Assembly: GCA_934385225.1 (NCBI GenBank)
Contig: CAKRPQ010000003.1
Span: 1 to 58,405 of the forward strand
Reading direction: 5' to 3'
DNA: 58,405 nucleotides
Source of the DNA: an uncultured Eubacteriales bacterium
GTDB lineage: Bacteria; Bacillota; Clostridia; Oscillospirales; CAG-272
The position numbers were made by a program, and so were the translations under genes. The notes under the pieces were generated by a model that did no database searches, had not been told where the DNA came from, and saw nothing but the letters and a program-made list of their open reading frames with translations. Below, piece after piece: positions 3,432 to 58,243 of this stretch. Position 1 is the stretch's first letter; each line of letters starts with the position of its first letter.

Positions 3432-3569
3432 TCCGCCGACCTCCCCGAATGTTTTTTCGGCTTCATTATACACCGTATCCCGACAAAAATCTACCGTCAA
3501 AAAGTAAATAATTGTATTTAAGGGAACAATTTACCCGAAAAGTCGTCGGAATAATCGGAGGACAACGCC

Positions 3570-4145
3570 ATGAAAAAACTTTTTGAATATATATCCGTGT
3601 CCGCACTTGCGCTTGCCGTTGTCTGCGCGCTCGTGTTTTCGTTTGTCTCATGCCTGAGAGCGGGGACTGACGCCGAGACGTGCGACGAAACAGCCGAAAC
3701 GGGCGGTGTAACCTTTCCCGTGTCGGGCGAGGCTGATTTGCGGAAGGATACGGAAAACGAAGTCAGCGTTTTCCCGTATCGCATTGTGAGAACGGGCAGC
3801 GGAGACGAGGATAAAGAATATCCGTATGTTCTGATAATAAAAAACAAGACCGATTTCGACGCGCTTGCAAAGAGGCTCGGCTCTGCATATGCTGAGGAGC
3901 TTTCGGCACTCGGATACGGCGACGCTTTCTTCGCCGAAAACGAGCTTGTAACCGTCGTATTGAGGGAGACAAGTGGGTCGATAGGACACGAGGTTCTCGG
4001 CGCAGACGAAAAGGGCGGGATACGAATAAAACGTATCCTGCCCGAAGAAGGAACGTGCGATATGGCGGAGTGGCACATTTTTGTCGAATTGCCGCTTGAT
4101 TTTTCGGAGCGCGTCCCCGACTTTTACGTCACGTTTTGTGAATAA
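3570..4145 (+). CDS. hypothetical lipoprotein (C-terminal half faintly PrcB-like)
   Basis: The signal peptide has a lipobox-like Cys (ALVFSFVSC). GGAGGA RBS. No catalytic motif was recognised. Confidence 0.6.
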   Translation: MKKLFEYISVSALALAVVCALVFSFVSCLRAGTDAETCDETAETGGVTFPVSGEADLRKDTENEVSVFPYRIVRTGSGDEDKEYPYVLIIKNKTDFDALAKRLGSAYAEELSALGYGDAFFAENELVTVVLRETSGSIGHEVLGADEKGGIRIKRILPEEGTCDMAEWHIFVELPLDFSERVPDFYVTFCE

Positions 4146-6512: not shown

Positions 6513-7565
6513 TTATCCGCCTATGTTGACGGAATGAATGTTCGCCGCACCGTTTGCGAGAACGTTGTCCGTCGGGATGTAAACGGCGTCAACACCTGCC
6601 GCACCGAGCGAAATGAAAGCCGCTTCGATGTCGTTGATGTCGCCGATACCCTTTACTTCGTACTTGTAGCCCTTTGCTTCGCATTCTTTCTTTGCAAGTT
6701 CTATCTGGAATACGGAGTTAGCCTCTGCCGAGGTGTAGAGAAGACCTATCTTGATGTCGTCCTTGCCGAGTAGCTCTGCGATAAGGTCGATCTGATCCGA
6801 AACGGGGTTGATGTCGGAGACGCCCGAAACGTTGCCGCCCGGAACGTCCATACTATCTACAAGACCTGCCGAAACGGGGTCCGTAACGGCGCAGAAGAGA
6901 ACGGGAATTTCGGTCGTTGCCGATGCCGCCGCCTGAGCCGAGGAGGTTGCTATCGCGTAGATGAGGTCAACTTTCTTGCTGACGAATGTTGTTGCTATCG
7001 TTGTGTTGTTCGACTGGTCGCCCGCCGCGTTTTCGCTTAGAATGTTGACTGTCTTGCCCGCTTCTTTCATTCTGACGGAAAGCTCGTCAACGAAGCCCTC
7101 GTTCGACTTGTCGAGAGCGACGTGCTGAACAAGCTGGAGGATACCGACGGTAAAGTCCGCACCGTCCGAGACAATCGCGTCGTTCTGTCTTTCGACGTTC
7201 ATCGAGGACGCGCCGTCACCCGCCTTTGCGAGAACGGATTCGGGGATTGTGAAGCCGATTTCGTCCGCGACGGTCTTGTTTACCGAAAGCGCGGGATTCG
7301 GGTCTGTTGCGACGGGCATTGCGGAAACGTCGGCACCGTCAAGAAGTATATCCGCCGCCATATCGCCCGCCTTAACGCCGAGGTTGTAGTAATCGACGCC
7401 GTAGGTTGCGACGCCGCAGGTGTCGTTCATGCCGATTTCGCCGCAGACGATGGGGAGCTTGTACGCGCCGCCGTCCTCTTTCTTTTCACAGGAAGCCATA
7501 AGCGCGCCTGTGGCGACGAGAAGAGCCGCCATGATAACCGAAAGAATTTTTTTCGTGTTTTTCAT
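6513..7565 (-). CDS. ABC transporter substrate-binding lipoprotein (ABC_sub_bind/PF04392-like)
   Basis: The start was moved to MKNTKKILSVIMAALLVATGALMASC (lipobox, AGGAG RBS). The ORF-track N-terminal 68 aa run through the T-box leader. Confidence 0.8.
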   Translation of the reverse strand: MKNTKKILSVIMAALLVATGALMASCEKKEDGGAYKLPIVCGEIGMNDTCGVATYGVDYYNLGVKAGDMAADILLDGADVSAMPVATDPNPALSVNKTVADEIGFTIPESVLAKAGDGASSMNVERQNDAIVSDGADFTVGILQLVQHVALDKSNEGFVDELSVRMKEAGKTVNILSENAAGDQSNNTTIATTFVSKKVDLIYAIATSSAQAAASATTEIPVLFCAVTDPVSAGLVDSMDVPGGNVSGVSDINPVSDQIDLIAELLGKDDIKIGLLYTSAEANSVFQIELAKKECEAKGYKYEVKGIGDINDIEAAFISLGAAGVDAVYIPTDNVLANGAANIHSVNIGG

Positions 7566-7653
7566 TTTCTTAAATCTCCTGATATAATATATTTCTGCCC
7601 CACGGAACGTGTTCCGATACGGGATTTGCAGTCGAAGTTTAGCGGAAGCGGGT

Positions 7654-7947
7654 AAAAAAACAAAAAATCCCCGTATCCGACACGGATACAGAGACGACTT
7701 TATCGAAAAAATCGTGTTACCACTCTGCTTTGTCCGTTCCCTTGCGGGAAGAACCTCATGGAGCGTCAAATAACGTTCCCGCGATGTTACGGTCGCACCG
7801 TCGCAGCCTACTTTTGTAATTTGTCACAGGTTCGGTGCGAAGCTCCCGAAATGTATTTCCGCTTTCTACTTGCTGCCGTCTTGCAGCGACCGACGGCTCT
7901 CTTGAAGCTTTCGAAAGACGTACTTCTTTTCGATCAACGCTTTTTTA
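7654..7947 (-). promoter_or_regulatory. T-box riboswitch leader, predicted Tyr specifier (TAC)
   Basis: On the minus strand the Stem I elements are a GA/K-turn (GCGTTGAT...), AGAAGTA, an AGAGAG bulge and the distal CCGTCGGTCGCTGCAAGACGG. The specifier loop is GAAA-TAC-A (TAC = 7853-7855). The T-box motif is AGAGTGGTAACACG (7713-7728). The terminator CTCTGTATCCG-tgt-CGGATACGGGG is followed by a T-run (7654-7695). Confidence 0.7.
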
Positions 7948-7954
7948 TGGGAGT

Positions 7955-7983
7955 ATTATATCACCGCAGAATAGCTTTGTCAA
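7955..7983 (-). promoter_or_regulatory. SigA-type promoter of the T-box/ABC operon
   Basis: Minus strand: TTGACA (7978-7983), 17-nt spacer, TATAAT (7955-7960). Confidence 0.75.
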
Positions 7984-8044
7984 GAGTTTTTTTCGATTTT
8001 TTGAAAAAAAGCGACAAAAAACTTGCAGAAAGCTCTTTGTCGCC

Positions 8045-8356
8045 ATAGTTGAAAGTTTTCGGCTCGCCTTATGCGGCGAAAGTTTTCGTCTCGCCTTTTA
8101 CAAAAGGCGAGTGCGGTCAAGGGCGCATAGCCCTTGTCGCTCTCCGCAGAGAGCGAAATGTTCTCGGCACTTTTCTTTTCGCGAAGCCTTTTCTTTTGTG
8201 CCTGCAACACCAAAAGAAAAGGCGCCGATGGGGACTGCACGACTTTACGGCGGCGGGTAGACAATCCCTCAGTCACCTGCGGTGACAGCTCCCTTTACAC
8301 AAGGGAGCCTAAGTCGGGGGTGAAGAAAGCGATAATCCAAGCACAACCGCCCCGAC
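8045..8356 (+). repeat. modular hairpin-rich intergenic repeat, copy A
   Basis: It holds two gaaagttttcg.ctcgcct units and hairpins at 8093-8108, 8119-8137, 8138-8155 and 8186-8223. It then carries the terminal module 8261-8310, identical to 52693-52742. It is collinear with copies B, C and D. Confidence 0.8.
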
Positions 8357-8362
8357 TATTGC

Positions 8363-16182: not shown

Positions 16183-16630
16183 GAACCCTTCCGCCGCTCG
16201 CTGCGCCCGCGCCTTTTGTGGAAGTTTTCGTCTCGCGCATTGTCGAAAGTTTTGGGTCTCGCCTTTGTTAAAAGTTTTTGGCTCGCCTTTGTTGAAAGTT
16301 TTCGGCTCGCCTTTGTTGAAAGTTTTGATCAACCTTTTACAAAAGTTTAGGTCAAGCCTTTTCAAAGGCTTGCGTGAGCCGCCGACGTCGGCGGTCGCCG
16401 TCCGCAGACGGCGAAATGATCTCGGCGTTTCTTTTTGTTAACTTTTTCTTTGCGCCTGTGGCATCAAAGAAAAAGTGGAGAACGGGACTGAATATCTTCA
16501 CGGCTGCAAAGAGGTGAACAACCCTACCGTCACTCGCTGCGCTCGTGCCACCTCCCCTTACCCACGAGGCAAGGGGAGGCAAAGGTGGAGGTGAAGTCTA
16601 ATAAAATCCAAGTATAAACTGCCCCGCCCG
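16183..16630 (+). repeat. modular hairpin-rich intergenic repeat, copy B (most complete)
   Basis: It starts 10 nt after the mnmE stop. It contains a partial terminal module (16184-16213), a tandem ~24-bp array, and the 16-bp palindrome ccgccgacgtcggcgg (16379-16394). Hairpins lie at 16396-16413, 16442-16475 and 16551-16579. The 3' tail resembles that of copy A. Confidence 0.8.
16218..16374 (+). repeat. degenerate tandem array (~24-bp period, about 6 units) inside copy B
   Basis: Units such as gaaagttttcggctcgcctttgtt follow each other head-to-tail, and two adjacent units are nearly identical. Copies A, C and D carry 2 such units and copy C' one. Confidence 0.8.
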
Positions 16631-20467: not shown

Positions 20468-20502
20468 GGGCAGTCCCTTCGGGGACTGCCCTTGTTGTTT
20501 TT
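20468..20502 (+). terminator. rho-independent terminator of the S-layer gene
   Basis: A 10-bp GC-rich stem (ggcagtccc.../...gggactgcc) closes a UUCG-type loop and is followed by ttgttgttttt. Confidence 0.85.
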
Positions 20503-20520
20503 GGGGGAAAGGGGGTGTAT

Positions 20521-20853
20521 GCCTTTTGCCGAAAGTTTTCGTCTCGCTGTTTTGTGAAAGTTTTGATCAAACTTTTTCTTGACTTCGTGAGCAGCACGAA
20601 TGTCTGGTTGCAGGTTTCCAAAGGCGGAGCCTTGGTCGCCGCTCGCAAGCGGCGAAACATTCCCGGCGCTTCTTTTTCCGCAAAGCGAGAAGCCGTAGGC
20701 TTCTATTTTTTCATTGCGCCTGTTGCATCAAGAAAAAGGGCGTTAATGGGGACTGCATATCTTCACCTCGGCGGAAAGATAAACAACCCTTCCGTCGGAG
20801 GGCTTGCGCACCTCCGCCACCTCCCCTTACACAGGGGAGGCTAAAAAGAGAGA
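20521..20853 (+). repeat. modular hairpin-rich intergenic repeat, copy C
   Basis: It is collinear with copies B and D. The stretch 20784-20852 matches 25797-25865 at 68 of 69 positions. Confidence 0.8.
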
Positions 20854-21140
20854 GCGCCTGTGGCATCAAAGAAAAAGCGGAGAACGGTGATGAATATCTT
20901 CACGGCTTAAAAGGCAAATGTAGCCGTGAAGCCGTGCAGTTCCCATTAACGCCTTTTCTTTTGGTGTTGCAGGCACAAAAGATAAAGGCAGAGAAAGCCT
21001 ACGGCTTCTAGCGAAAAGAAAAGTGCCGATAAGGAGTTTCGCCGTCTGCGGACGGCGACCGCCGACGTCGGCGGCTCACTGCACGCAGACATTCGTGCTC
21101 CGCACGAAGTCAAGAAAAAGGCGAGACGAAAACTTTCACC
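20854..21140 (-). repeat. partial forward module (20854-20907) plus inverted copy C' (20922-21140) of the same repeat family
   Basis: The perfect 10-bp inverted pair cttcacggct (20898-20907) / agccgtgaag (20922-20931) marks the centre. The reverse complement of 20922-21140 is collinear with copy C (for example ctttttcttgacttcgtg...agcacgaatgtctg). Confidence 0.75.
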
Positions 21141-25557: not shown

Positions 25558-25592
25558 GGTGTTCTCCTTTATGTTGTAAATTTTGTTTTTGT

Positions 25593-25936
25593 AAAGTTTA
25601 GGCTAAACCGATAATTAAAGTTTCGGTCAAGCCTTTTCAAAGGCTTGCGGTTTCCAAAGGCGGAGCCTTGGTCGCTCGTTGAGGCGAGCGAAATAATCTC
25701 GGCGCTTTCTTTTTGTTAACTTTTTCTTTGCGCCTGTCGCATCAAAGAAAAAGTGGAAAACGGTGCTGCACGACTTCACGTCGGCGGATAGGTGACCAAC
25801 CCTTCCGTCGGAGGGCTTGCGCACCTCCGCCACCTCCCCTTGCACAGGGGAGGCTAAAAAGAGAGTGCCTGCAACACCAAAAGAAAAGGCGTCAGACGGT
25901 GCCGCACGACATCACGGCTGTAAAGAGGTGAACTTT
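25593..25936 (+). repeat. modular hairpin-rich intergenic repeat, copy D plus partial second module
   Basis: It is collinear with copy B, sharing an identical 32-mer (16428-16459 = 25706-25737), and with copy C. The tail 25865-25891 is identical to 8198-8224 and to the reverse complement of 20950-20976. Confidence 0.8.
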
Positions 25937-50987: not shown

Positions 50988-51016
50988 TTGACTTTGTGCG
51001 GCTTGTATGCTATAAT
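50988..51016 (+). promoter_or_regulatory. SigA-type promoter of the phosphofructokinase gene
   Basis: TTGACT (50988-50993), 17-nt spacer, TATAAT (51011-51016). Confidence 0.7.
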
Positions 51017-51062: not shown

Positions 51063-52289
51063 ATGAATAAACTTATCGGAAACGCCGTCGTCGGGCAGTC
51101 GGGCGGACCGACCGCAGCGATAAACGCAACTCTTGCGGGCGTAATAAGAGAGGCGGAAAAGAACCGCGACGCGATAAAGACCCTTTACGGTATGAGAAAC
51201 GGTATAGAGGGACTTCTCGCGGAAAACCTTGTCGATCTTTTCGCTCTTTTTGATAGCGAAAAAAAGCTCACCCATCTTGAACATACACCCGCGTCCGCGC
51301 TCGGCTCGTGCCGAAAGAAACTCCCCGACGCAGAGAGCGACCCCGATTTTTACGACAGGCTTGTCGCCATATTCAAAAAGTACGATATAAGATATTTCTT
51401 CTATATCGGCGGTAACGATTCGATGGATACCGTCGCAAAGCTCGATACCTTTTTTGAAAATTACGACTACGATATAAGAATAATCGGCATTCCCAAGACG
51501 ATAGACAACGACCTCGTAATAACGGATCATACGCCCGGTTTCGGCTCGGCGGCAAAGTATATCGCAACGATGACGCAGGAGATACTTTGCGACTGCGCCG
51601 TCTATACTCTCCGCGCGGTGACGATTATTGAGATAATGGGAAGAGACGCGGGCTGGCTCACGGCATCGTCCGCTATCGGCAGAGCCGTTTGCGGCAGAGA
51701 ACCCGATCTCGTTTACCTGCCCGAGGTCACTTTTGACCGCGAAAAGTTCATTTCGGACGTAAATAAAGCGCTTTCGAAACATTCGAACGTCGTTGTTGCC
51801 GTCTCCGAGGGCATACGCGATGCGGACGGTAACTATATCGGCGCGTCAAGCGGCGCGACCGACGTTTTCGGACATAAATATCTCGCGGGCAGCGGTAAAA
51901 CGCTCGAACTTCTTGTCAAAAAGGAGATCGGCTGTAAGGTGCGTTCGATAGAACTTAACCTTTGCCAGAGATGCGCGTCGCACGCCGCGTCGAAAACGGA
52001 TCTCACCGAGTCCGCGTCTGTCGGCTCACACGCTGTAAGTACGGCTGTTTCGGGCATAAGCGGCGTCGTTATGACGATTCTGCGCACGTCCGATGACCCC
52101 TATACCGTCAAATACGGTATGGCAAGAGCCGAGGATATTGCGAATAAGACGAAATACGTCCCGCGCGAGTTCATAAACGCCGAGGGTAACGGCGTGACCG
52201 ACGAATGTATAAAATACCTCCTTCCGCTGATAAAAGGCGAAGTCGAACCCGAATATAAAGACGGTCTTCCCGTTCATATGGTTATCTGA
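51063..52289 (+). CDS. phosphofructokinase-family protein, PPi-dependent-like (GGNDS motif)
   Basis: The motifs are VGQSGGPTAAINA, FFYIGGNDSMDT, IGIPKTIDNDL and MGRDAGWL. Asp stands at the position that is Gly in ATP-PFK GGDGS. The start was re-picked at MNKLIGN. Confidence 0.75.
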   Translation: MNKLIGNAVVGQSGGPTAAINATLAGVIREAEKNRDAIKTLYGMRNGIEGLLAENLVDLFALFDSEKKLTHLEHTPASALGSCRKKLPDAESDPDFYDRLVAIFKKYDIRYFFYIGGNDSMDTVAKLDTFFENYDYDIRIIGIPKTIDNDLVITDHTPGFGSAAKYIATMTQEILCDCAVYTLRAVTIIEIMGRDAGWLTASSAIGRAVCGREPDLVYLPEVTFDREKFISDVNKALSKHSNVVVAVSEGIRDADGNYIGASSGATDVFGHKYLAGSGKTLELLVKKEIGCKVRSIELNLCQRCASHAASKTDLTESASVGSHAVSTAVSGISGVVMTILRTSDDPYTVKYGMARAEDIANKTKYVPREFINAEGNGVTDECIKYLLPLIKGEVEPEYKDGLPVHMVI

Positions 52290-52294
52290 AAAAA

Positions 52295-52742
52295 AGCCTC
52301 CCTTGTGTAAAGGGAGGTGGCACGGCTTGCCGTGACGGAGGGATTGTATTTGCAAAGAAAACATAATAAAGATATTGTTCCGACAGCAAAGATTTTGAGA
52401 AAGAATATGACAAAGGAAGAAAATCATCTTTGGTATGATTTTTTGCGTACATACCCTGTTCGTTTTTCCCGACAAAAGGTTCTCGGCAGATATATTGCGG
52501 ATTTTTACTGCGCCGAGGCGAGGCTTGTCATTGAACTTGACGGATCGGGGCATTACACGGCAGAAGGAAAGCGGCATGATGAGATACGCAGGCTTTTCTT
52601 GAAGGCTATGGAATTTCGGTTGTCAGAATATCGAACACGGCAATCAACAACAACTTTCGAGGTGTATGCGGTTATATAGACCGTATTGTTGAACAATCCC
52701 TCAGTCACCTGCGGTGACAGCTCCCTTTACACAAGGGAGCCT
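52295..52742 (+). mobile_element. DUF559-gene cassette bounded by ~50-bp imperfect terminal inverted repeats (putative small selfish element)
   Basis: The left arm is 52295-52347 and the right arm 52693-52742. The reverse complement of the right arm aligns with the left arm: aggctcccttgtgtaaagggag... vs agcctcccttgtgtaaagggag..., both ending ...gagggattgt. Each arm folds into two hairpins. Confidence 0.65.
52317..52717 (+). pseudogene. DUF559 (Vsr-like endonuclease domain) gene, apparently frameshifted
   Basis: Frame A encodes ...AKILRKNMTKEENHLWYDFLRTYPVRFSRQKVLGRYIADFYCAEARLVIELDGSGHYTAEGKRHDEIRR. The family-typical continuation AFLEGYGISVVRISNTAINNNFRGVCGYI... is in the +2 frame from ~52592 and ends at TGA 52715-52717. 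Confidence 0.7.
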
Positions 52743-52856
52743 TTTTGTTTTGCCGATTTCACATTTTGTGCAAAATGACGATTTTTCGGTTTTGCAAAAA
52801 AAGTGTTGACAAATATAGTGTTATAATGTATTATAATATACAGGGGGGTATGGATT

Positions 52857-58166: not shown

Positions 58167-58243
58167 TGGTCGGAGTGACAGGATTCGAACCTGCGGCCTC
58201 TTGGTCCCGAACCAAGCGCACTACCAAGCTGTGCCACACCCCG
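58167..58243 (-). tRNA. tRNA-Pro (anticodon CGG), CCA encoded
   Basis: The minus strand reads CGGGGTGTGGCACAGCTTGGTAGTGCGCTTGGTTCGGGACCAAGAGGCCGCAGGTTCGAATCCTGTCACTCCGACCA. It folds into a cloverleaf with a 7-bp acceptor stem, anticodon loop TTCGGGA and a GTTCGAATC T-loop. Confidence 0.95.

Follow-up and report, generated by a model that had tools for sequence, protein, structure and literature searches.

A stretch of 58,405 nt from contig CAKRPQ010000003.1 of an uncultured Eubacteriales bacterium (the window, at its full length; loci used for comparison are labelled L001 etc.) carries, directly 3′ of a phosphofructokinase-family gene (pfk), a 445-bp cassette in which a DUF559 endonuclease gene is enclosed by two inverted, hairpin-forming arms. 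The comparisons presented here establish the cassette as a conserved unit bounded by repeats, with arms that are selected as structured nucleotide sequence and belong to a repeat family that includes gene-less members. As to its function, we incline slightly to the reading that the cassette is the protein-coding member of a small palindromic repeat family of gut Clostridia, and that its nuclease would act on the arms in a REPIN-RAYT-like manner.

Architecture of the Cassette

The cassette extends from the GCC at 52296 to the GGC at 52740 and is intergenic, between pfk and a downstream lipoprotein gene (309 aa). The stop codon of pfk (52287-52289) is followed by six A's and then by the GCC of the left arm. 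Each arm is ~55 nt long, and as inverted repeats positions 52291-52326 pair with 52711-52746 (36 nt, 89% complementary) and positions 52332-52347 with 52693-52708 (16 nt, 94%). The arms fold into two hairpins each (-13.8 and -13.3 kcal/mol, z = -4.7 and -4.6, equalled by none of 200 shuffles), and the 19-mer of the outer hairpin has five matches in the window against 0.02 expected.

In detail, the left arm is composed of AAA, a conserved hairpin hp1 (52297-52317; stem CCTCCCTT/AAGGGAGG, loop GTGTA), a hairpin hp2 (52321-52334, CACGGC/GCCGTG) of variable sequence among copies, and a conserved inner 11-mer, GGAGGGATTGT (52337-52347). The right arm contains the inner motif ACAATCCCTC (52693-52702), hp2′ (52704-52718) and hp1′ (52720-52740), followed by a C and a T-run. 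Both ends of the open reading frame (ORF) lie inside the arms. The 11-mer doubles as a Shine-Dalgarno sequence, with GGAGGG at 52337-52342 placed 7 nt before the TTG at 52350, the start position of the family by homology. The TGA stop codon (52715-52717) is located inside hp2′, and the last eight codons of the ORF, which read EQSLSHLR in the window, are supplied by the right arm. The position of the cassette, its inverted arms with two hairpins each, the ORF ends within the arms and a break of the reading frame had been described in an earlier note made from the letters of this stretch, and all are confirmed; its identification of the gene as DUF559/Vsr-like and its proposal that this copy is inactivated or mis-sequenced also stand, as detailed below.

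In the promoter scan of the window, no promoter-like site was found in the cassette itself (for pfk, see table 1). For this reason the DUF559 gene is probably cotranscribed with pfk, with an end at the right-arm hairpin and T-run. The terminator pattern (G+C-rich hairpin plus T-run) is found in the right arm on the plus strand and in the left arm on the minus strand, and hp1′ of the window together with its T-run looks like a terminator for pfk and DUF559. The T-run is missing at other loci, for instance at L089, where a separate terminator comes after the cassette; termination is therefore not a conserved function of the arms. Searches of Rfam at the gathering threshold showed no family in the arms or in the downstream modules from five sources, and no intron.

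Table 1. Coordinates, strands and supporting evidence of the cassette, its arms, the adjoining gene and the solo arms in the window
Feature	Position	Strand	Evidence and remarks
DUF559 (Vsr/EDxHD-like PD-(D/E)XK) ORF, broken	52350..52717	+	Frame translations; PF04480 profile; alignment with intact alleles
Left arm	52293..52347	+	Inverted-repeat detection; fold z = -4.7; near-invariance and covariation over 82 copies
Right arm	52693..52746	+	Inverted-repeat detection, fold, terminator scan; mean pairwise identity 99.4%, 68 species
Upstream pfk-family gene, pyrophosphate (PPi)-dependent phosphofructokinase type	51063..52289	+	Pfam PF00365 5e-55; NCBIfam PRK14072 (PPi-PFK subfamily) 521 bits
Promoter-like site before pfk-family gene	50988-51016		Promoter scan
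Solo arm, no adjoining gene	8261..8310	+	50 nt 100% identical to right arm; in all strains examined; within cluster of other intergenic repeat modules
Diverged solo arm	20783..20842	+	hp1 variant CCTCCCCT/AGGGGAGG, other hp2, inner motif ACAACCCTTCC; two hairpins
Diverged solo arm, second copy	25797..25855	+	~90% identical to 20783-20842

Conservation of the Cassette as a Unit

A scan with one genome per species confirmed 362 loci, and the family figures were taken from the best 80 of these 362. Both arms are nearly invariant in all 80. Cassette length is 444-448 bp in 73 loci, and among these the ORF is intact with 122 aa in 68 and with 123 aa in two, and contains a stop codon in three. The left edge is sharp, as shared homology jumps from ~5-11 to 79/79 loci exactly at the left arm. 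The C-terminal tail of the family, EQSLSQLR, is the translation of the right arm, and ORF calls with N-terminal extensions are translations of the left arm.

The mean pairwise identity of codon positions 1, 2 and 3 is 0.95, 0.97 and 0.74, respectively. The protein is accordingly under purifying selection. The arms (0.97-0.99) are more conserved than the synonymous sites (74%), and they are thus constrained as nucleotide sequence. Their hairpin stems covary: over 82 copies, 99.2% of cells are paired and five pairs have changed on both sides, a value reached by none of 500 shuffles. At three loci (L028 146-250, L045 3400-3481, and L080 2950-3010), other small hairpin modules are nested inside hp2 or hp1, that is, the arms are themselves targeted by other repeat elements.

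Arms without the Gene

Arms are also found without the gene, as solo arms and as doublets. All three solo arms of the window (table 1) sit within clusters of other modular intergenic repeats, and further ones occur in L108, L029, and L049. Seven gene-less doublets, consisting of a left arm, ~25 nt and a right arm, were found in genome loci. Metagenomes were scanned for the two inner motifs at a distance of 10-40 nt, and the counts, made among 120 stretches (739 kb), are a lower bound: at least 93 complete doublets with lengths of 107-143 bp (median 123), distributed over 47 unique sites, with no DUF559 gene among the 120 stretches.

In the doublets, an unstructured spacer of 14-46 nt takes the place of the 369-nt ORF of the cassette. 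Both hp1 and the 11-mer are conserved, despite there being nothing to translate. The hp2 hairpins occur in 38 (left) and 30 (right) distinct sequences; five pairs or more form in 92% and 83% of these, versus 36% and 22% of shuffles. The differences between left and right arm (closing pair C-G vs G-C; GGTGG vs CAG) are kept in 90 of the 93 doublets, and the ends of transposons are, likewise, consistently different. This is how an autonomous element and its non-autonomous partner are built, or a REPIN population and the gene flanked by its repeats.

The clusters of repeat modules in the window are located at 7950-8360, 16200-16530, 20500-21140, and 25580-25920 and include, for instance, tandem units of GAAAGTTTTCGNCTCGCC as well as GGTTTCCAAAGGCGGAGCCTTGGTCGC. 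A 43-nt perfect inverted pair joins 16374-16416 with 21037-21079. Similar modules are present in another Ruminococcaceae species (L108 2150-2330), and the window clusters look like mosaic elements of the bacterial interspersed mosaic element type. In one strain (L102 2900-3240, against window 7900-8300), the inner end of the solo arm is directly followed by other repeat variants and thereafter by different genes (ParB/ParA), either through a rearrangement or through an assembly chimera at the repeat cluster.

The Protein and Its Putative Active Site

The protein, with its reading frame repaired, matches PF04480 (DUF559) with 89.8 bits over profile positions 5-106 of 109, and the unrepaired ORF with 73.1 bits (gathering threshold 20.6 bits). 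The NCBIfam model PRK09767 (YcjD) scores 57 bits, under its equivalog cut-off of 218. The only Pfam matches are PF04480, PF10881, and PF18741; the search showed no transposase features and no match to a Y1 (HUH) transposase of the insertion sequence (IS) type IS200/IS605. Relatives of the repaired protein exceed 7,900 at E < 1e-10 and are mostly 122-aa proteins of gut Clostridia with 75-83% identity.

Residues D62, E73, D75, H79, and D88 (numbering of the repaired 133-aa protein) are invariant in 14 homologues and form a putative Vsr-like active site. The closest solved structure by sequence is 3HRL, NGO0050 of Neisseria (E 4.7e-15). In a Foldseek search with a structure model of low confidence (pLDDT 61), the best match was 3R3P, the catalytic domain of I-Bth0305I (E 5e-4, TM 0.46/0.58), followed by 3HRL. 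Vsr, DUF559 and the EDxHD homing endonucleases have been grouped in one PD-(D/E)XK subgroup (PMC3424549, PMC3384342).

The Break in the Reading Frame

In the window, frame 1 (...GKRHDEIRR) is read up to 52590, and the next frame (AFLEGYGISVV...EQSLSHLR) up to the TGA. Aligned with its intact alleles, the locus lacks one C between 52590 and 52591, CGCA[C]GGC; the alternatives within 52580-52600 are CGCAGGC in the window versus CGCACGGC. The comparison at this locus comprised the window, L001-L004 and L130, while L005 and L006 stop short of the site. Among these six assemblies, the C is missing only in the window and L001. It is present in L002, L003, L004, and L130, where the ORF is continuous with 122 or 121 aa; the intact allele of L003 lies at 3496-3864, and L130 also has (AAC)2 in place of (AAC)3. 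L001 is identical to the window wherever compared, a private variant at 52845 included, and for this reason may be the same assembly.

The variant at 52845 is the second private change of the frameshift strain, 255 nt from the break. It lies in the ribosome-binding site of the downstream lipoprotein gene, which is GGGGGG in the window and L001 and GGAGGG in L002-L004 and L130.

Since the sister strains are intact and the family is intact in 70 of 73 loci, the window copy is a recent null allele (pseudogene) or an assembly error, and not a feature of the family. It could be argued that the shift is a programmed recoding site rather than a defect, as the downstream frame is open up to the family stop codon. 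This explanation is hardly credible and was rejected: in the sister strains the extra C is present and the ORF runs without a break, no break is seen at this position in 70 of 73 family members, and there is no slippery motif at the site (CGCAGGC).

Genomic Contexts

In ~60 of 66 loci the upstream gene has the same orientation as the cassette; its end falls anywhere from 14 nt inside the left arm to 92 nt ahead of it, and at some loci its ORF enters the arm and stops at a TAA of the hp1 loop. Upstream genes belong to ~35 unrelated families, including NUDIX, S-adenosylmethionine methyltransferase, nucleotidyltransferase, kinase, GNAT, and pheA, with NUDIX in ~17 of 80 loci and also in L108. There are one or two copies per genome (two in eight sampled genomes). 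The contigs with the exact proteins P0053 and P0029, 23 for each, show one context per protein, and the contigs of the window species likewise share one context. On every contig with the exact pfk of the window, with exact P0053, P0029 or P0001, or with the neighbor gene of the solo arm, the cassette or the arm is present. The nearest pfk relatives (77% and 70% identical) keep the upstream sigma-factor gene and show no cassette 3′ of pfk; since the downstream genes differ as well, they do not represent clean empty sites.

In L035 (2790-2862 and 3431-3501) and L082 (2765-2838 and 3405-3476), the final ~75 nt of a pheA-type gene (prephenate dehydratase) are directly duplicated on either side of the cassette. 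The duplicate on the right begins directly after the right arm. Several positions are unequal between the two, as would follow an insertion that restored the 3′ end of its target gene. A partial duplicate of the 3′ end of the gene also comes after the cassette in L026 (3446-3526), similar to the case of ycjD described below.

A phage or plasmid vehicle was considered and dropped, as IMG/VR, INPHARED, and PLSDB hold only distant relatives (up to 56% identity).

DUF559 Genes with Flanking Repeats in Other Phyla

Twelve distant DUF559 loci were sampled, and in seven of them inverted repeats of 27-66 nt bracket the ORF. These are Deinococcus proteolyticus (56 nt, 95%), D. psychrotolerans (56 nt, 98%), Novosphingobium (66 nt, 89%), Sinorhizobium (43 nt, 91%), two Sphingomonas loci, and one IMG/VR contig. 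Two others, ycjD of Escherichia coli and the Photobacterium locus, have hairpins of the CCTCCC...GGGAGG type on a single side. In Deinococcus, Sphingomonadaceae, and Sinorhizobium, the bracketing sequences are local palindromic repeats of the GGGAGG type. The Deinococcus arm goes with the gene in four species, the arm of Sinorhizobium is a dispersed repeat found in 20-40+ places per replicon (310 records), and the boxC-like element beside E. coli ycjD occurs in a median of 17 places per genome. In an independent survey, the annotations "DUF559 domain-containing protein" (odds ratio 14.3) and "endonuclease domain-containing protein" (9.6) were enriched with predicted inverted repeats of the inversion type (PMC9881135).

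Two of the repeat-flanked genes are placed inside operons, between the two transhydrogenase subunit genes in Sphingomonas (L254 300-750) and between paaD and paaZ in D. psychrotolerans (L256 240-740), and this placement mirrors the position in the window directly after pfk. In E. coli K-12 (L113 7200-7420), ycjD is followed by a partial duplicate of its last ~40 nt (GGAGACGGTGCTGGAGAATATTC...) and a boxC-type repeat.

Larger Units in Ruminant-Gut Clostridia

Outside the window, in most loci from ruminant-gut Clostridia, conservation extends for another ~130-150 nt past the right arm. The last module (AAAACTGTCCTTWAGRG-loop-CYCTA) recurs in inverted orientation 450-1300 nt upstream, ahead of the small upstream gene. 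The order of these units (L007-L086, e.g., L020 2268-3560 and L007 2105-3560) is an inverted end module, a terminator with promoter, a variable small cargo gene, the cassette or a doublet, three hairpin modules, and an end module. One unit (L132 1130-2560) has a gene-less doublet where the cassette would be.

Outside both end modules, there are locus-specific sequences of 8-20 nt that are mutually reverse complementary, then A- and T-runs, for example AAAAAAGGATCCGCTCA ... TGAGCGGATCC TTTTTT. Complementary runs of at least 9 nt are found in 70% of units versus 8.8% of random pairings. Where loci share a cargo gene, the host sequences on either side are not homologous. The intact form of the terminator predicted for L020 is AAAAAATCCACCGA-loop-TCGGTGGATTTTTT. 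The simplest reading of these sequences is that units of 1.0-1.8 kb, with cargo gene, DUF559 cassette and modules, would have been inserted into the loops of bidirectional terminators. They look like an undescribed cargo-carrying element that targets terminator loops.

Other Features of the Window

A T-box leader (Rfam RF00230, 105 bits) is located at 7687-7946 on the minus strand, upstream of the gene at 6513-7680. A tRNA gene is found at 58170-58243, also on the minus strand.

Interpretation and Rival Explanations

The data favour, short of proof, a nuclease that would act on its arms. The main argument for this is that the architecture of a gene with flanking repeats recurs with unrelated repeats in distant phyla. 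According to the proposed mechanism, the nuclease would recognise and nick or cut the arm hairpins, either extruded from double-stranded DNA or in single-stranded form, and host repair or replication would then copy or maintain the DNA bounded by the arms. In this way the gene would service the population of doublets and solo arms, as RAYTs do for REPINs, by means of another enzyme class.

Several results weigh against such an activity. The structure model is of low confidence and lends weak support only. The protein is a 122-aa nuclease without evident strand-transfer activity, and any copying would therefore rely on host functions. The cassette of many ruminant-gut genomes forms part of a larger unit that ends in other repeats, so the arms need not be the ends where movement happens. 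No flanking repeats are present at three of the 12 distant DUF559 loci. Within three species (6, 23, and 23 contigs), neither an empty site nor an insertion polymorphism was found, and the locus is fixed. Finally, no target-site duplication or palindromy of the flanks was found above chance at 47 doublet sites and 73 cassettes. A target duplication or a split palindrome around cassettes and doublets was accordingly abandoned, though the signal is strong for the larger outer units.

These results bear on two suggestions of the earlier note. It had proposed a homing-type or otherwise selfish cassette: the search for occupied and empty sites recovered no empty ones within species, there are one or two copies per genome, and no target duplication was found. 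Active homing is not supported, because no empty alleles were found, the copy number is low and the loci are stable; in its pattern the gene is closer to a stable, single-copy gene of the RAYT kind than to one that actively spreads. The note had also suggested that the nuclease may be the mobilising function of the repeat family. As a proposal this link is reasonable, since gene-less doublets and solo arms exist and the pairing recurs in other phyla. Two of the outcomes that the note had named as contrary to its idea were not observed. Relatives do not always carry the cassette at the same place, as it is missing 3′ of pfk where pfk is 77% and 70% identical, and the arms are not ordinary terminators, being a nearly invariant, structured, left/right-asymmetric pair that stays with the gene through hundreds of species and many contexts.

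Among the rival explanations, the DUF559 gene could be a passenger, the arms and doublets being elements like repetitive extragenic palindromes (REPs) or miniature inverted-repeat transposable elements (MITEs) that are moved by an unlinked enzyme such as an IS transposase or one of the RAYT type. The protein indeed has no transposase features, doublets are found kilobases from any DUF559 gene, and in related genomes the cassette or doublet is an internal part of larger units with other ends. Against this, the same gene family is bracketed by unrelated local repeats in Deinococcus, Sphingomonadaceae, Sinorhizobium, and Clostridia, which makes independent capture unlikely; every copy draws its start signal and its last eight codons from the arms, and 70 of 73 species have kept the gene intact. 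We consider a passenger gene unlikely. An ordinary host gene for a repair-type nuclease, with arms that serve as REP-like terminator, mRNA stabiliser or translation control and with neither mobility nor a relation between nuclease and repeat, seems just as improbable. It would agree with the fixation of the locus within species, the co-orientation with the upstream gene, the frequency of NUDIX genes upstream (~17/80 loci and L108), the terminator pattern of the right-arm hairpin and T-run in the window, and the lack of a promoter before the gene. It is opposed by the absence of conserved synteny (~35 upstream families, with a sharp 445-bp boundary) and by that of the T-run elsewhere, as in L089. 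Furthermore, the arms exceed synonymous sites in conservation among genomes whose pfk is only 65-77% identical to that of the window, and the doublets retain the Shine-Dalgarno motif with no gene to translate.

The inverted arms could also be sites of programmed inversion, by which the gene would be switched on or off relative to an upstream promoter. In favor of this, inverted repeats of 55 nt enclose the whole gene, and DUF559 genes are enriched among the predicted targets of programmed inversion (PMC9881135). Nevertheless, every contig of the three species shows a single orientation, the gene is strongly biased towards the direction of its upstream neighbor (~60/66), no recombinase gene was called among the neighbors at the window locus, and frequent inversion would scramble the consistent asymmetry of left and right arms, all of which render a switch very unlikely. 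An integron attC site was also considered and dropped, since the arms are on both sides of the gene and the inner motifs do not fit the R′/R″ consensus.

Comparison with Known Systems

The closest parallel is the REPIN-RAYT system (PMC5581495, PMC8266576), in which a species-stable gene in one or two copies lies, similarly, between inverted short palindromic repeats, and the same repeat is dispersed as hairpin-forming doublets and single copies. The cassette differs in that its protein is a Vsr/EDxHD-like PD-(D/E)XK nuclease (PF04480) and not a Y1 HUH transposase, and in its arms, which at ~55 nt comprise two hairpins and an 11-mer, overlap translation signals and C-terminal codons, and have so far modest copy numbers.

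EDxHD homing endonucleases such as I-Bth0305I (PDB 3R3P; PMC3239194, PMC3384342) appear to share the catalytic fold family, according to the Foldseek match of the low-confidence model and to PMC3424549. They occur in selfish elements and some are free-standing (PMC3239194, PMC3384342). On the contrary, the cassette is outside introns and inteins, its 122-aa protein has no separate DNA-binding domain, and no pair of occupied and empty alleles was found, as all contigs of its species carry it. The inverted hairpin flanks of the cassette are absent from EDxHD homing endonuclease genes. In the case of E. coli Vsr, the very short patch repair endonuclease, the fold and catalytic residues are distantly related, and the YcjD profile detects Vsr (PMC1189080). 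Nevertheless, PF03852 is not among the Pfam matches of the cassette protein at E up to 0.01, no cytosine methyltransferase is among the genes called around the cassette, and the architecture is wholly different.

The doublets, 107-143 bp long and intergenic, with terminal inverted repeats and often in mosaics with other modules, resemble MITEs and bacterial palindromic repeats. The latter include Correia, ERIC, RUP, E. coli boxC, and the rhizobial intergenic mosaic elements. Unlike MITEs, the doublets showed no target-site duplication and have no DDE-transposase parent, and their coding partner is a nuclease. The boxC-type repeat beside ycjD suggests that such a pairing may extend to some of the classical repeats.

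In the literature searched on DUF559, EDxHD, Vsr-like proteins, ycjD and REPIN/RAYT, no account of a repeat-flanked DUF559 cassette was found, and the sole trace is a table entry in PMC9881135. The earlier note's remark that mobility of DUF559 cassettes is without precedent holds only in part, as EDxHD homing endonucleases such as I-Bth0305I are Vsr/DUF559-like (PMC3239194, PMC3384342).

Significance

A wider and rather doubtful reading is that DUF559 as a whole consists of dedicated nucleases of GGGAGG-type palindromic repeat families across phyla, and that the cassette may be the engine of the 1.0-1.8-kb units of ruminant-gut genomes. It would take in the clostridial, Deinococcus, and sphingomonad arms, the rhizobial mosaic repeats, and possibly E. 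coli boxC with YcjD, and it would amount to a second, RAYT-independent system of repeat plus enzyme.

In practice, cassettes and doublets interrupt metagenome assemblies: many homologues are found on contigs of 0.5-1.3 kb or lie at the ends of contigs. Annotation pipelines predict spurious ORFs that run across the arms. The DUF559 family is very large and has no assigned biological role, and the finding gives it a concrete question, namely whether the 122-aa protein binds or cuts its own hairpins. If this is true, the origin and maintenance of several classical unexplained bacterial repeat families would be accounted for, a second enzyme class would join the REPIN-RAYT paradigm, and there would be a small nuclease, specific for structure or sequence, whose DNA substrate is defined.

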